DNA of 64,000 nt from Octopus vulgaris (taxonomy: Eukaryota). Positions 1 to 62,909 of this stretch are shown here, piece by piece. The first letter of the stretch is position 1, and each line of letters begins with the position of its first letter. The DNA lies in the NCBI GenBank assembly GCA_951406725.2, contig OX597825.1, positions 24,800,001-24,864,000 on the forward strand, written 5' to 3'. A program made the position numbers and the translations under genes. The notes under the pieces were generated by a model that was not told the DNA's origin, ran no database searches, and saw nothing but the letters and a program-made list of their open reading frames with translations.

Positions 1-170
1 TTGTATTTGTGAGTACAAATATGTATTTATACATACATGCTAGATGTGTTGAAACAATTGTCGTGATTAATAATAAATTCTCATATATTCCATCATCTGT
101 CTATATGTATATATATACATATAATTTCAACTATATATTATACATATATATATATATACATATCTATATA

Positions 171-344
171 CTTTATTTAAAAGCAGCAGAAATATAACAA
201 AAGCTGTTACTCAGAGTTTCACGTTCCCGTTCGTCAGACAGTTTTGTTAAGAGAAAATAAATTTTTAACAAAACTGTCCGACAAACGAGGTCATGAAACT
301 CTGAGTAACAGCTTTTGTTATATTTCTGCTGCTTTTAAATAAAG
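171..344. mobile_element. Fold-back (palindromic) Penelope-type terminal element; each arm carries a hammerhead motif
   Basis: Arms 171-250 and 265-344 are near-perfect inverted copies; homologous palindrome at 22398-22552. Confidence 0.65.
204..241 (-). ncRNA. Minimal type I hammerhead ribozyme with canonical core
   Basis: Minus strand: CUGU-CUGACGA-ACG(GGAA)CGU-GAAA-CUC(U)GAG-UA^ACAG; stems I, II and III all pair. Confidence 0.75.
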
Positions 345-489
345 CCAATTACTCATATTTATAGATAAATTCCTCTATTTACATAATATTGAGGTCTCAT
401 TCATTCTTTTGTTGTCATATTATTATTATTATTATTATATATATATATATAATAATTATTATTTGAGGAATAAAATCCAAACTTACAAG

Positions 490-815
490 GAAAAAGAATT
501 CAATTTAGAAATACTAAATCAAATTCCACACAATATAATATATATAAAATATTAGAAAAAAACCACCTTTTATCAATTCAAAATGAATAATTAAATTACA
601 CCATCTAGAAAATTACATATAATAGAAAAGTTAAAATTAAAATAACAATTAAAAAGTAAATATTAAGTAAATTTTATACATTATTCTAGTAATTTATTTA
701 ATCTTTACTTTTTAATTGTTATTTTAATTTTAACTTTTCTATTATGTGTAATTTTCTAGATGGTGTAATTTAATTATTCATTTTGAATTGATAAAAGGTG
801 GGTTTTTTTCTAATA
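490..815. repeat. AT-rich fold-back element in (TA)n
   Basis: attagaaaaaaaccaccttttatcaattc... inverted at ...gaattgataaaaggtgggtttttttctaat; homologues at 21795-22022 and 47456-47620. Confidence 0.75.
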
Positions 816-817
816 TG

Positions 818-870
<53 letters not shown>

Positions 871-2584
871 ACAAAAAATCCTGTGAAATCCTTGAAAGTA
901 GGGTCAGTAGATCCAGTGGTAATCTGAATAGAGTGCTTGTATGTCGATGAGGAGAGGTGCTGAAAGTTCAGGAAGTGGTTCAGAAATACAAGCCCAAAGT
1001 GTAGGAAGTTCAGGCAGGATCAAACTGGGGAAGTCATGTGAGCACATAATATATAGTTGAAATTTATAGAAAAACAAAAGGCAAAGAAAAGTGTATTAGT
1101 TTGATGTTCAGAAAAATGAAAAAGGCTTTTACATTTTGAGTCTACGCTCTTCAACAGAACGGAATAAGAGATAATAAACTGAGAGAGAATGCTGGACCAT
1201 TGAAATCTACATGTTTTTTCATTCTCTCTCACTTTATTTCCTCTTATTCCTTTCTGCTGAAGAGCATAGGCTTGAAACATAAAAGACCTTTTCATTTTCC
1301 CGAGTGTCAAACTAATACACTTGGTTGTTGTTCATACGCCTGTCTTCATCTTTTGTTTTACCATAAATTTCAACTATATATGTATATGTGTTTGTATATG
1401 TATATGTATATATATATTGTTATATTTCGGAATGGTCATTTTGCCAGTTTAGCCAATAAAAACACATGCACTAAATATTTGGTGTTACTTTGCTTCAATG
1501 TTATTTATTTTTTACATTAATCTTAATCTTATTTCAGCCAGAGTTCTTTCGTCACACTCCTGTGACTGCATCAGAGGACAGCTGCATCAAAAAAGGGCCA
1601 ATCTCTAATTGTGTAGGGAACATGTTGAAGGGTAGACAAAGTGATGACAAAGGATCTCCAGATGTTGAGCCTCACTGAAATTACAAGGGATCGAGACTTG
1701 TTAATTGGTGTGCTTGAGAAAAGGCATCAAGCTAAGTAAAACCACGGCCATCTACACTTATGGGACTGTCCCTTGCAGCCATTCTACTCGTTCCCTCTCC
1801 CAGCTGAGTGGATTTGGTAGACAGAAACTGAAAGAGACCCATCATATGTGTGTGTGTGTTTCCACCAACCCCACCATTACTTGACAACTGATGTTGGTGT
1901 GCTTATGTCCCCGTAACTGAGTGGTTTGGCAAAAGAGACTGACAGAATAAGTACTAGGCTTACAAAGGTTAAGTCCTGGGGTTGATTTGTTTGACTAAAG
2001 GTGGTGCTCCAGCATGGCTGCAAAAAAAAAAAACGTTGCCCTTTTCAAGCCTAACCAGGCTCATGGGCCCGGATTCCCGGTTTCTGTGGCATATGGGTTC
2101 CCTCCAGCTGGACAGGACACCAGTCCATCACAGCATTACTCAAGAAACAGGAAGATAGAGTAAGAGAAAGTTATGGCGAAAGAGTACAACAGGGGTCGCC
2201 ACCACCCCCTGCCAAAGCCTCGTGGAGCTTTTAGGTGTTTTCACTCAATAAACATACACAACGCCTGGTCTGGGAATCGAAACCATGATCCTCCGACCAT
2301 GAGTCCACTGCCCTGACCACTGGGCCATTGCGCCTCCACTGCACCCTTTTAAAGCCTAGCCAGGATCATGAGCCTGGTTTCCCGGTTTCTATGGCGTATG
2401 TGCTCCCCAGCTGGACGGGACGCCAGTCCATTGCGGCATTACTCATTTTTGCCAGCTGAGTGGACTGGAGCAATTTGAAGTGTTTTGCTCAAGAACACAA
2501 TGCGTCGCCCGGTCCAGGAATCGAAACCACAATCTTATGATCATGATGCTGACACCCTAACCACTAAGCCACGTGCCTCCACAC

Positions 2585-3845: not shown

Positions 3846-6800
3846 ACTGTAGACACTGATCCTTGTCTTGTTCTTCAGGTTGTTATTGTGCCAAACATGT
3901 TTGTACAATCTGCCAAAGGAGCTCTTTGCCTTAGAGAGTCTATTGTCAATTTCCTTGTTGATGCTTGCATCGGATGAGATGATGCAGCCCAAGTATGTGA
4001 ACTGCTGTGTTGATTTCAGTTCGGTACCACAGAGAGTGATGCGGGGTGGGTGATATACCTCTTGGGATGCAGGCTGGTGAAGTACCTCTGTCTTCTTGAG
4101 GCTGACCGCTAGGCCAAAGAACCGCTAGGCCAAAGAACCGCTAGGCCAAAGAACCGCTAGGCCAAAGAACCGCGAGGCGTCTGCAAAGCAGGACGTGATG
4201 TGCTGCAGAGCTCGCTCTGTGTGGGCAACAAGAACAGCAGCATCCGCAAAGAGAAGGTCTTGAATCAAGGTCTTGGTGTGGGCTTGAAGGCACCATAGAT
4301 TGAAGAGGCTGACATCCAGACGGTACTTGACATACACCCCATCCCCATCTTCCAGATCTTCAGTTGCATGCATGAGCATCATACTGAAGAAGATGCTGAA
4401 GAGAGTCGGTGACAAGACACAACCCTGCTTCACGCTGTTGGAGATGGGGAAGGGCTCCAACAGGTCATCATTGAGTCTGATCTGGCCACACTGGTTCTCA
4501 TATAGCTGGACCACCATCTGTAGAAACTTGGAGGGACAACCAAGTCGTTCCAGGATGAGCCATAGTCTCGTCCTGCTCACTGTGTCAAATGCTTTTGTGA
4601 GTCTGCTCCCAGCAGCAGACAAGAAAATCATGGAGCTTGTCATATTGCGTCGGACCTCCATTCTTCCAGCTTTCTGGTGAGATGCTATCAACTCCTGCTG
4701 CTCTGTGACTCTTGAGTTGTCCTATGGCTTCAGTCATCTTTTCAAGGGTGGGTGGTTCGTCGAGCTCCTCTTTGAGTGGAAGTTGAGGAATGCGATGGAT
4801 GGCAGCATCCTGTATGGTATGGTTAGCACTGAAGAGGCTTTGGAAGTGCTAGGGTCAGTGAGCTAGGGCCAATGAGCGAGGATGGAAGTGTTATCAGAGG
4901 TCCTGTTCATCTGAACTACGCAGGGGACTCTGGACCTGGTGGATGGGGCCATACACTGCTTTCAGAGCCTCATAGAAGCCTCTATAGTCTCTGAGGTCAG
5001 TGCACAGCTGGGTTCTCCATGCCAGGTGGTCCCACCACTCATTCTGTATTTCTCTGAGTTTGCACTGTAGGATGCTGCATGCGCATCAAAAGGTAGCTTT
5101 CTTTACAGGACATGCTGGTTGTGTGAGGTGGGCCTGAGGAGCTGCCCTCTTCCTTGCTTGTAATTCCTGGATCTCCTTGTCCTTATCATCGAACCAGTCC
5201 TTGTTTTTCTTCTTTGTGTGCCCAAGAACGTCCTCAGATGTCTTAAGGATGGTTGATTTCAGGTTCTCTCAGAAGATGTCTGGAGTGGTGTCATCAGTGC
5301 AAGGGGAATCATCCAGCTTTTGCTGCAGGTCTGCTTGGAACTTGATTTTCACTTCTTCCCGACACAGGCTGCTGACATTGAGTTTATGGGGTTACCTTTC
5401 TTCTTGGGTTTGGGTTTGAGCTGCAGTTTGAGCTTGCAGCAGACAATGCGGTGATTGGTGTGGCACTCTGCGCTGGGCATCACTCTTGTGTGTAGAACAT
5501 CTTTCAGGTCCCGCTGGCATTCAAGCACATAGTCAAGTAGATGCCAATGTTTGGACTGAGGATGCATCCAAGTTGTTTTTAGACGGTCTTTCAGTTGGAA
5601 GATTGTGTTGGTAATAGCAAGTTGGTGCTCTGTGCAGAACATGAGCAGGAGGCGCCAATTGTCATTACAGCTACCAACGCCGTTTCTTCCAAGGATTTCT
5701 TTCCAAGCCTCAGAGTCTCTCCCAACTCTTGCATTGAAGTTGCCAAGGATCAGGACCTTGTCGTTTGCAGGGGTGTTGTTCAAGGGTCTGTGCAGATCAG
5801 AATAGAAGCTGTCTTTGTCTGCAGGATCTGCCAGTAGAGTTGGAGCATAAACACTGAAGAGCATGAGATGTTGTTTGCTCTCCAGTGGTAGGCGCATGGA
5901 TATGATGCAGTCCGAGTAGCCCGTGGGTAACGTTTCCAGTTTGGATGTGATGGAACTCCTCACCATGAGTCCTACACCCAACAGGCGTCTTCCAGATGAT
6001 GGTTTCCCAGACCAGAAGAGGGTGTAGCCAGCACCGCATTCTTTGAGGCTGCCCTTGTATTTGAAGTGGACCTCACTGAGAGCTGCTATGTCAATATTGA
6101 GATGGGAGAGTTCATGAGCTATGAGAGCCGAACAATGTTCTGGACAGCTGCTGTCAGCCTTGTCAAGCATGGTCCTGACATTCCAGCAGGCAACTTTCAA
6201 GTCCTGCTTACATTTTTCGGTTTTGTTTCCATGTTTGTTTGGCCACTCTGAAGATGCCCGTTGACCACTGCTAGCCAACTGGGTATAGAGGAGATGAACT
6301 TTGTTTAGGTGAACCTTTTCTACTACCCCTCTCCATGTGAAGCAAGCAGTGCTCTCTCTAAATAGGGCTGCCTGGTTGCTCAGGATGCTGCTGAGGGGTG
6401 TCATCGCCTCCGGGACGTCAACCAGGTGACCGAAGTCCTGAGCCGCCTATATGTAGGATCCAGACTGCGGCTTCGAGAGAAATCTTCCACCTGCCGCTTT
6501 TGCCCCATTCCCATCGCAGCAGAGCTTTTGGAATGGTTGGTCATAGAACATGGACGTGTCCTTTGGTCTGCACTGGGGAGTTTTAAAGTGAAGTGCAGTG
6601 CACACAAACTGGCCCCACCCTTTAAGCACAAAGTTCATCTGCCATGGCCTAGCAAGCTGGGATGGTGACAGCGAGATCCTCAGGCCGTAGGTTTGAAGTC
6701 AGAGTTACCCTCTCCTAGGCCAGTTGCCAACCATGGATGATGAGCCCCTCCTGCCCGTGCCATCGAAACCATGGTGAAAGAGGGAAAAGGATCCATGGTT

Positions 6801-16984: not shown

Positions 16985-17343
16985 AATGGTAAGACAACAA
17001 AAGAATGAAAGAGACTTTGATATTATGTAAATAGAGGAATTTATCTGTAAATATAATATGTGACAATTATTCGGTAGACATGATAAAACTCCGAGTTTTG
17101 GATGTCGGGGCAGAAACCCACGCCACCATCTCTTCAGTTATTCGGCTATTCGGAAAAAATTCTCTTCAGTAGGTCTGCTTCGAAGTTTTCCAAGCCTTTG
17201 ATTTTTGGAGGGAATTTCTTAGATTTAATACCATAGACTATATTCTTTGGATAACTGGAGATGGTGGTGTGGGTTTCCGCCCCGACATCCAAAACTCTGA
17301 GTTTTATCATGGCTGCTGAAAAATTGTCACATATTATATTTAC

Positions 17344-20806: not shown

Positions 20807-22192
20807 TCATATTACATATATGCACACACCTTATATTTATCTTTGTTACTATTATATATATATATAAAAATATCATTATTATTATTATTATTATCAGGGG
20901 CAAATATAAATAATTGATAATAACAATAACATCAGTGGCAGCAAGCAATATTAGCATTAAACAGCTATACCATAAATTCTTAATTATTATTAATTCTTAA
21001 TTAGAGGGTACATGAAGCACCAGCTTGCTAAAGAGTGGAAGTAAAAAACTCCAACTTAACCACTAATCTTACAGAAAATATGTAACGGACCAAAATTCAA
21101 AATCATGATCCAGGTATATTTGTTACCTTACCTTATTCTACGGCTTTTTAACTGAGAAAATATGTTAAAAGGCCGAGGCTATCAGAGGTGGGGAAAATGT
21201 TATTTTCGACATGGTTTCACATCGTAGGGGAAGTTGCTCAGTATTTTAAAATTTATTTTTAAAAGTTGTTCCTCTTGGATTGTCAGCAAATTGGTTCGTT
21301 TCACAACCATATTAATTTGTGTTTAAAATGATAGAGTTTTTCTTTATGTTGTCTAGCGTGATTAAGATGTCCAATGTATTGGTAACTATTTGTCATTCAT
21401 TGATGATATACTCCGCCAAAAATGTTGAGATATATCAAAATGTAAAAGTGTGTGTTAGGTTTTGTATGCAAAGGACCAGTCGGGTGAATTGTAGCAAGTC
21501 ATCCCACTGAAAATGGTACTTTCCAGTTACAAAAGATAAACTTGTCTTGATGAATACATTTTAAAATACTGAGTTACTGTCCCTTAAGACAAAACAATCA
21601 TTTATTCTCAAATAATACTTTTCCTCTAATAATCTCCTCATGCCAGAGGTCATTCATAAAATAAACCTGAAGATTGCCAAGAAGAAAGAAGATGGCTGCA
21701 GCTTGAACTGAGCTGGGCCACACTTCTTCCTCCAAGCATAAAGCTTGAAGTAATTTGTCACAAATAAGATACTTTTTATATATATATATATATATAAATT
21801 AGAAAAAACACACCTTTTATCAATTCAATAATGAAAAATTAAATTATACCATTTAGAAAAATTACCAAATATATACGTTTTATTTATTATTTTGCACATT
21901 ACTTACTCATTGTTATATGTTTTATCTTATATTTAATCTTTCTATAATATGTAATTTTTCTAAATGGTATAATTTAATTTTTCATTACTGAATTGATAAA
22001 AGGTGTTTTTTTCTAATTTATACATATATATATATATATATATATTTATTTTAAGCAGCAGAAAATTCAACAAAATTTTGAGTTTCTCTGCTTCATCAAC
22101 AGTTTTTGCTAGCAAAAACTGTCTATGTGTTTTTGTTGAATTTTCTGAAAATTGAAGTTTTTTTCCACCTTGTTTCACATTTATGTTTTACT

Positions 22193-22276: not shown

Positions 22277-22327
<51 letters not shown>

Positions 22328-22397
22328 GGAGTAAACACATAAATGTGAAACAAGGTGGAAAAAAAGAGTACTCAAATACCAGTGGTAGAGTAATATG

Positions 22398-22552
22398 CTT
22401 TATTTAAAGCAGCAGAAAATTCTACAAAACCTGTTACTCTGAGTTCCACGTTGCCGTTCATCGGACAGTTTCTAGCAAAAACTGTCCAATGAACGGCAAC
22501 GCGAAACTCAGAGTAACAGGTTTTGTAGAATTTTCTGCTGCTTTAAATAAAG
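22398..22552. mobile_element. Fold-back element with two hammerhead-like arms (homologue of 171-344)
   Basis: ctgtCCGATGAacggcaacgtGGAACtcagaGTAacag (minus strand) and ctgtCCAATGAacggcaacgcGAAACtcagaGTAacag (plus strand). Confidence 0.65.

Positions 22553-23489: not shown

Positions 23490-62909
<39,420 letters not shown>

Follow-up and report, generated by a model that had tools for sequence, protein, structure and literature searches.

The palindrome at positions 171–344 of the window (the 64,000-nt stretch of Octopus vulgaris DNA analysed here) very probably consists of two short, hammerhead-bearing pseudo-LTR (pLTR) ends of a Penelope-like element (PLE) with Hydra-clade protein motifs, placed back to back in a (TA)n repeat, likely by a single insertion event, and likely dead since. 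Its arms, 171–250 and 265–344, are 80 nt each and 93% complementary around a 14-nt spacer, the whole measuring 174 bp, and the 174-nt strand has a folding energy of −120.5 kcal/mol (z −23). The first arm (171–250, minus strand) is an inverted, 5′-truncated pLTR end that stops at the pLTR end without a tail, an outer end (+41 from the ribozyme cut site) that it shares with young inverted pairs. It is bordered at 125–170 by a decayed (TA)n-rich target, and relatives meet (TA)n-type repeats at the same AATAAAG end. The A/T-rich junction of the two truncated 5′ ends (251–264) is specific to this copy, differing among 22 loci. By sequence reading and comparison of the arms, 265–344 on the plus strand is probably a sense copy of the pLTR end with a decayed hammerhead at 274–311. 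It is followed by a probable, very short (10 nt) remnant of the family’s ~70-nt tail (345–354, plus strand), which resembles the tail start of relatives and to which the tail of another PLE family, family B, is joined (355–419, plus strand; 84–92% over about 65 nt by blastn against loci bearing the family B hammerhead). The plus arm is probably the sense copy, because ~10 nt of tail seem to be left beside it, which would place the consensus-matching hammerhead in the inverted copy; with the tail almost gone, the strand of the sense copy rests on these 10 nt. A target-site duplication is indiscernible in the (TA)n flanks.

The earlier note had placed a type I hammerhead on the minus strand at 241–204, and its letters read as it stated. 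Direct reading, a descriptor scan and k-mer counts assign it a consensus core with U4 at position 236. Stem I pairs 241–238 with 207–204, the core CUGACGA occupies 237–231, stem II (230–228 with 223–221) is closed by a GGAA loop, GAAA lies at 220–217 and stem III, CUC-U-GAG, at 216–210; U209 and A208 follow, with a predicted cut between 208 and 207. A descriptor scan of both strands of the whole 64-kb window returned this as the sole hammerhead match (core start at minus 237), against a chance expectation of 0.025 matches on average at the same stem lengths in 40 second-order Markov shuffles. Rfam does not detect the motif, returning no hammerhead family at E values up to 10 for window positions 1–1500, where its 38 weak matches all fell below the gathering score and were mostly to microRNA hairpin models. 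The 4-bp stem I described previously is present, but helix I is really 12 bp long with one bulge: folding adds eight pairs (249–242 with 202–195, C203 bulged; 195–249, minus strand) with pair probabilities of 0.87–1.0 in the isolated arm, and a like extension is predicted in 5/5 subfamily representatives. The type I order of CUGANGA, GAAA and UH with three helices is found only in the minus arm; the plus arm and the family majority lack it. The plus arm is indeed a decayed copy, as proposed, differing from the minus arm at 6/80 sites, which include G8 to A and a broken stem II, and it retains C4.

The palindrome’s relatives number in the thousands, most with C in place of U at core position 4; typically one arm ends where the pLTR does and only the other has the tail. 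A genome search with the palindrome gave 1570 first-look candidates, and the 40 that were scored were of similar length and 84–91% identical, apart from the palindrome itself. A tail of about 60–72 nt stood on one side in 21/21 other loci fetched; both outer ends of these loci adjoin simple repeats, mostly (TA)n, and the centre varies between copies. Walking upstream bore out the suggestion that a hammerhead with a palindromic stem III belongs to a PLE terminal repeat, as single-arm copies extend to varied lengths and the longest reach the C-terminus of a GIY-YIG domain and a reverse transcriptase (RT). A broken full unit (L119) has a 5′ hammerhead and tail and a second hammerhead 3168 nt on, with C4 at both. 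The autonomous partners that had been anticipated are also there: a protein search identified a young sister subfamily (about 76% identity, about 1% diverged) with many 726–727-aa open frames, arranged in tandem (period 3356) and in inverted pairs, whose hammerhead 32-mer has 3398 exact matches in the genome. Tandem matches on C29 were set aside as a local triplication and not an element array.

Judged by its motifs, the parent is a PLE of Hydra-clade type. Its protein (P0001) has RWK, DKT, CxCX5C, CxxC and CxH, and RWK, DKT, the CxCX5C linker, CxxC and CxH are Hydra-clade diagnostics (Craig et al. 2021, PMC8557442); an assignment to the Neptune clade was dropped on this match. A single open reading frame with RT followed by a C-terminal GIY-YIG is found in both the parent and the young sister, with the hammerhead ~130 nt upstream of the open frame. 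Atlas neighbours at 0.96–0.99 carry HTH_animal, GIY-YIG or RVT_1 on some members; Pfam gave 0 families in the parent reading-frame pieces or a 711-aa young protein, and a PDB sequence search gave no solved structure. Other Hydra-type features present are (TA)n targeting, pLTR tandems, an inverted 5′-truncated copy and a one-sided tail. A hammerhead is present in the pLTR, with a U4C core in the window’s subfamily and U4 in the youngest. Four old copies match the young unit at 0.44–0.76 identity in the 3′ UTR, 0.76–0.84 in the core and 0.87–0.93 in the tail. A tree of 90 of 270 arms (those with a long 3′ UTR) falls into three groups, an old and a middle one with C4 and a young one with U4; having no outgroup, it gives no order of changes.

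The elements agree with the Hydra PLEs of Craig et al. (PMC8557442; hammerheads listed in File S2) in the C-terminal GIY-YIG and motif set, the (TA)n targets, a hammerhead whose palindromic stem III is closed by a 1-nt loop, and the inverted 5′-truncated copy at the 5′ end with a one-sided tail. An octopus family, Hydra-1_oBim, is listed there, but its hammerhead has stems other than the window’s, and it is the coral Hydra-2_aMil hammerhead that shares stem I, stem III and the cleavage base (File S2). Several of the listed hammerheads have an unpaired stem II position next to the core, as here. All 26 Hydra rows of File S2 are U4, in a listing whose descriptor demands U4, whereas C4 dominates the window’s subfamily and family B; stem II here measures only 2–3 bp, the unit is 3.36 kb against ‘generally under 3 kb’, and the tail is ~70 nt against 30–40 (PMC8557442). 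The minimal PLE hammerheads of Cervera and De la Peña (2014, PMC4209133) are likewise type I motifs in pLTRs with a short palindromic helix III, a dimer model of action and copies that are mostly single or truncated. Their G10.1–C11.1 pair is absent here, where helix II is short and helix I long, and we found no mention of a U4C core in the parts of that survey drawn on here.

The textbook U4 of the minus arm (236) is most likely a CpG transition from the family’s C4, since U4 occurs at the frequency of other CpG changes and partner arms are without it. Genome-wide, the exact 32-mer is found 1059 times in the C4 form and 81 times in the U4 form; other single CpG transitions of the same 32-mer occur 51 times (G to A at the CpG of C4) and 63 times (C to T at the next CpG). 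Among 61 arms from 50 loci picked regardless of core, C4 had become T in 7, and the other seven CpG positions had changed in 1–11. The partner arms of palindromes picked for U4 had U4 in 0/13 readable cases, and another old subfamily had 7 U4 among the first 100 of 153 matches. The U4 count of 81 exceeds the control of 51 (binomial p 0.011), the excess over the control of 63 being smaller, and a small U4 subfamily or a strand bias may be the source of this excess. The ribozyme had been called intact, a description that is not supported, its canonical U4 being a minority state at the frequency of CpG decay.

Stem II varies between subfamilies as well. In a hand count of the first 100 of 6354 wildcard matches to the hammerhead, 61 had the young form (U4, A opposite A at 10.1–11.1), 19 the middle form (C4, A opposite G) and 10 that of the window’s family (C4, A–U), with 10 others. 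Across nine arms from different subfamilies, stems I and III are invariant, 10.1–11.1 is unpaired in 4/9, and variation is confined to positions 4, 7 and 11.1 and to both loops; in the subfamily forms, loop 2 remains a GNRA. By analogy, an unpaired 10.1–11.1 is not in itself a defect, because published Hydra hammerheads are often unpaired there. The covariation by which the earlier note proposed to judge the stems did not appear within the lineage, a two-sided change being seen in 0/10 pairs; by inspection, family B and the published Hydra motifs keep pairing with different stem I and II sequences.

The hammerheads of the two arms point outward, so that, whichever strand is transcribed, the ribozyme is preceded in the RNA by its own complement. 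In a 186-nt context, all 17–18 hammerhead pairs have a probability of 0.0 on both strands, and on both the hairpin is about 69 kcal/mol better than the best fold containing a hammerhead. A transcript through the palindrome is therefore predicted to fold as an 80-bp hairpin and not as a ribozyme, contrary to the proposal that a ribozyme would be presented whichever strand is transcribed. The 9-mer of stem III self-pairs at −7.9 kcal/mol, as the dimer model requires, but the two hammerheads lie on opposite strands and so cannot dimerise in cis within one transcript. We consider it highly improbable that the minus arm owes its core, by descent or by selection back to that form, to a canonical hammerhead active at this locus. 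U4 together with a paired 10.1–11.1 does single it out, the combination occurring in 1 of the first 100 of the 6354 wildcard matches, and the isolated arm comes within 2.1 kcal/mol of the hammerhead fold (stem III probability 0.02). Such activity is opposed by a U4 rate equal to that of CpG decay, by the C4 of partner arms, by the transcription of the complement ahead of the ribozyme and by the location, about 23 kb beyond the last PI3-kinase coding exon found (near 23.7 kb, minus strand). The PI3-kinase exons span 23550–50700 on the minus strand, with C2 near 50.5 kb and kinase exons near 34.3, 30.4, 29.3 and 23.7 kb.

The window holds another inverted pair of this lineage at 22326–22552, which is of the middle subfamily, with C4, a decayed core and a full tail. 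The final PI3-kinase coding exon ends about 1 kb before it on the same strand, and the pair could lie in the 3′ UTR and form long double-stranded RNA.

Insertion ends were read from a young sample, the first 100 of 3027 matches to the young 3′-side word, chosen regardless of the hammerhead. Outer ends lie at +41 or +107 from the cut site, and inverted pairs usually have one of each; exceptions are L184, with the tail on both arms, and L251 and L255, which end at +94 and +62. Over all loci extracted, 70 inverted pairs carry the tail on exactly one side in 62 cases, on both in 3 and on neither in 5, the last being the window copy, L084 and three artefacts of local triplication. At the 5′ side, about 40 of the 100 arms end in a 22-nt window at −28 to −49 and 6 in the next 100 nt, and none of the 100 arms and 24 unit-spanning copies ends at the ribozyme cut site. 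The three 5′ ends nearest to it (+4, +4 and −2) go back to an internal deletion, a junction with an inverted tail and an alignment that stopped at the wrong place, and cleaved RNA as the template was rejected on the absence of cut-site ends among the 100 arms. The pile-up at −28 to −49 was also considered as a transcription start, which was rejected since 0/18 copies passing the second upstream hammerhead stop there, and as a splice acceptor, which fits the young sequence while the older subfamily is without the AG.

Seven copies that pass the second hammerhead stop at −101 to −134, among copies chosen for long open reading frames or extent. Of the 24 unit-spanning copies (L272–L291, L146, L231, L240), 7 have 5′ ends at −101 to −134 and 3 at +31 to +38. 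Judging from these end positions, the cluster 101–134 nt before the upstream cut site may mark the transcription start.

After hand deduplication the young sample holds 45 inverted pairs, of which 30 join two short arms, 15 two long arms and 0 a short to a long one; L143, outside this unbiased sample, is a short-long pair. Distinct junctions are present in 26/30 short young pairs, and the palindromes are for that reason not a self-amplifying fold-back unit: one subfamily after another has formed such palindromes afresh, among them a young one whose 727-aa reading frames are intact. The earlier note had preferred a non-autonomous fold-back element, copied as a unit and presenting a working ribozyme from either strand. 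The 1570 first-look candidates, with 40 scored at similar length and 84–91% identity, look at first like the copies of such a unit, and one perfect palindrome of 158 bp was met several times in the young subfamily, a recurrence for which a minor amplified master could also account. The proposal nevertheless founders on the heterogeneous junctions, on the continuum with single-arm, long and ORF-bearing copies, on the palindromes that every subfamily, the young active one included, makes for itself, and on a ribozyme sequestered in a hairpin without covariation, and we regard it as very unlikely. Neither the shared internal junction nor the symmetric ends of a fold-back element or MITE are found (26/30 junctions distinct, one-sided tail in 62/70), and in place of the direct tandem repeats and same-strand hammerheads of a non-LTR retrozyme the arms are inverted. 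Non-LTR retrozymes (10.64898/2026.07.22.740005, PMC7229834) do resemble the palindromes in being non-coding, hammerhead-bearing and PLE-derived, but they are direct tandems with ribozymes on the same strand, as against inverted arms with ribozymes on opposite strands here.

Priming at two sites has, in our view, about an even chance of being the mechanism that makes the inverted pairs, and is favoured because the ends at +41 and +107 correspond to the pair of RT start sites on either side of the tail in PAc. In vitro, the Poseidon element PAc (Frangieh et al. 2024, PMC11167929) starts reverse transcription at two adjacent sites bounding the tail, cuts and extends both target strands and uses uncleaved RNA as the main template, with no reads at the cut site. 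This behaviour agrees with the +41/+107 ends and the absence of 5′ ends at the cut site here; PAc is of another clade, and its hammerhead overlaps the start of the open reading frame instead of lying ~130 nt upstream. No explanation of inverted pairs was found in the parts of that study drawn on here, and no relevant report of twin priming behind inverted PLE copies in the literature searched. In the proposed sequence, the element’s endonuclease would cleave the (TA)n target on both strands, and the ends so produced would prime reverse transcription at neighbouring sites of the element RNA, one at the tail end (+107) and one at the pLTR end (+41). Both cDNAs would pass the uncleaved hammerhead, often stopping 28–49 nt upstream of the cut site, and would then be joined at small self-complementary words to give a hairpin with a tail on one side. 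Later, CpG decay likely turned C4 of the minus arm into U4 and damaged the plus arm; the tail was mostly lost.

The same geometry might instead come from a fold-back of one cDNA, a possibility we rate as appreciable though doubtful. A tail-primed cDNA would stop upstream of the hammerhead, self-prime on a small pLTR palindrome, copy itself back to the pLTR end and meet the target by microhomology. This would suit the coupling of arm lengths (30 short-short and 15 long-long pairs with none mixed, and a Spearman coefficient of 0.61 for the long ones), the many junctions on a 4-nt palindrome at −44 to −41 and the fact that the arms are nearly always of one subfamily type. Fold-back alone leaves unexplained the many single copies that end at +41, very unequal long pairs such as −331 with −1550, and inversions of the tail only, in which a lone arm faces an inverted tail without any duplication (L262, L239, L025, L028, L037, L057, L062 and L073). 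At L017:1500–1667 an inverted pair has arms with the diagnostics of different subfamilies, suggesting two templates or an insertion beside an older copy. Mutations in the arms of 26 young pairs, which are small numbers, comprise 1 shared by both arms and 9 private to one.

Short palindromes could also be what stably persists of long inverted insertions after a later deletion of their centres. Long palindromes are known to be unstable, and long inverted pairs are common (15/45). Yet in a subfamily that is ~1% diverged, short pairs already make up two thirds of the total, the 5′ ends crowd into 22 nt (40/100 arms) with only 6 in the next 100 nt, and non-inverted single copies end there too (L236, L250, L264). 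Later collapse is an unlikely account of the short pairs.

The C4 core extends to family B, whose hammerhead 5′ word has 4099 matches in the genome, with C4 in 94 of the first 100. Family B forms tandem arrays (period about 2580) with 717-aa open frames and copies mostly 98–100% alike, and its protein is 45% identical to the first and has the same Hydra motifs. A U4C core is present in two expanding PLE lineages that are 45% alike in protein, one of them young with intact reading frames. Loci L319–L324 (G000:C1, for example 57208000–57223500) are young family B loci in tandem and inverted arrays, with a U4C hammerhead and a long stem II. In the window, 16990–17150 on the minus strand is an older family B end, with U4 and a decayed GAAA followed by the tail.

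The same core change is known from a viroid hammerhead (cited in Perreault et al. 2011, PMC3088659), where U4C is reported to reduce in vitro activity considerably while still permitting infectivity; here it is instead the majority form in thousands of genomic retroelement copies. No report of a U4C or CCGANGA core in PLEs was found in the literature searched, and Lünse et al. 2017 may list U4C.

Other palindromes in the window include one at 1089–1322 that is extended on one side and whose plus arm holds a hammerhead-like CUGAAGA...GAAA core; by its sequence it is probably the end of a third PLE family. Three related A/T-rich palindromes (556–808, 21804–22012 and 47495–47618) are without a hammerhead core word. 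The palindrome at 62554–62741, with 88-nt arms, TTGCAGCG-type ends and no hammerhead core, could be a true MITE on the basis of these features. A LINE fragment with endonuclease and RT domains lies at 4128–6446 on the minus strand.

There is nothing unusual about the locus itself, which is one fossil PLE end among thousands, and much of its setting is already in print: hammerheads in Hydra-clade pLTRs, inverted truncated copies, and pairs of hammerheads on opposite strands, which in Schistosoma lie 100–700 bp apart (PMC4209133). Its perfect consensus serves as a warning that, in a single copy, such a match can arise through a chance CpG change. What emerged at the family level bears on the role of the hammerhead in endonuclease-bearing PLEs, which Craig et al. 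state to be open (PMC8557442). We tentatively suggest that two lineages of these PLEs, one of them young with intact reading frames in tandem, multiplied into the thousands while carrying a crippled U4C hammerhead, that no sampled insertion started from the cut site, that the inverted pairs record a fixed two-site priming geometry (+107/+41, coupled lengths), and that the motif was kept as a structure for the element’s protein and not as a cutter. If so, a large part of the PLE hammerheads would escape searches for CUGANGA, and what the PLE hammerhead is for could be tested directly on matched natural U4/C4 pairs. The natural U4 and C4 versions in recently active relatives, together with a clean record of insertion ends, provide material for cleavage and retrotransposition assays.
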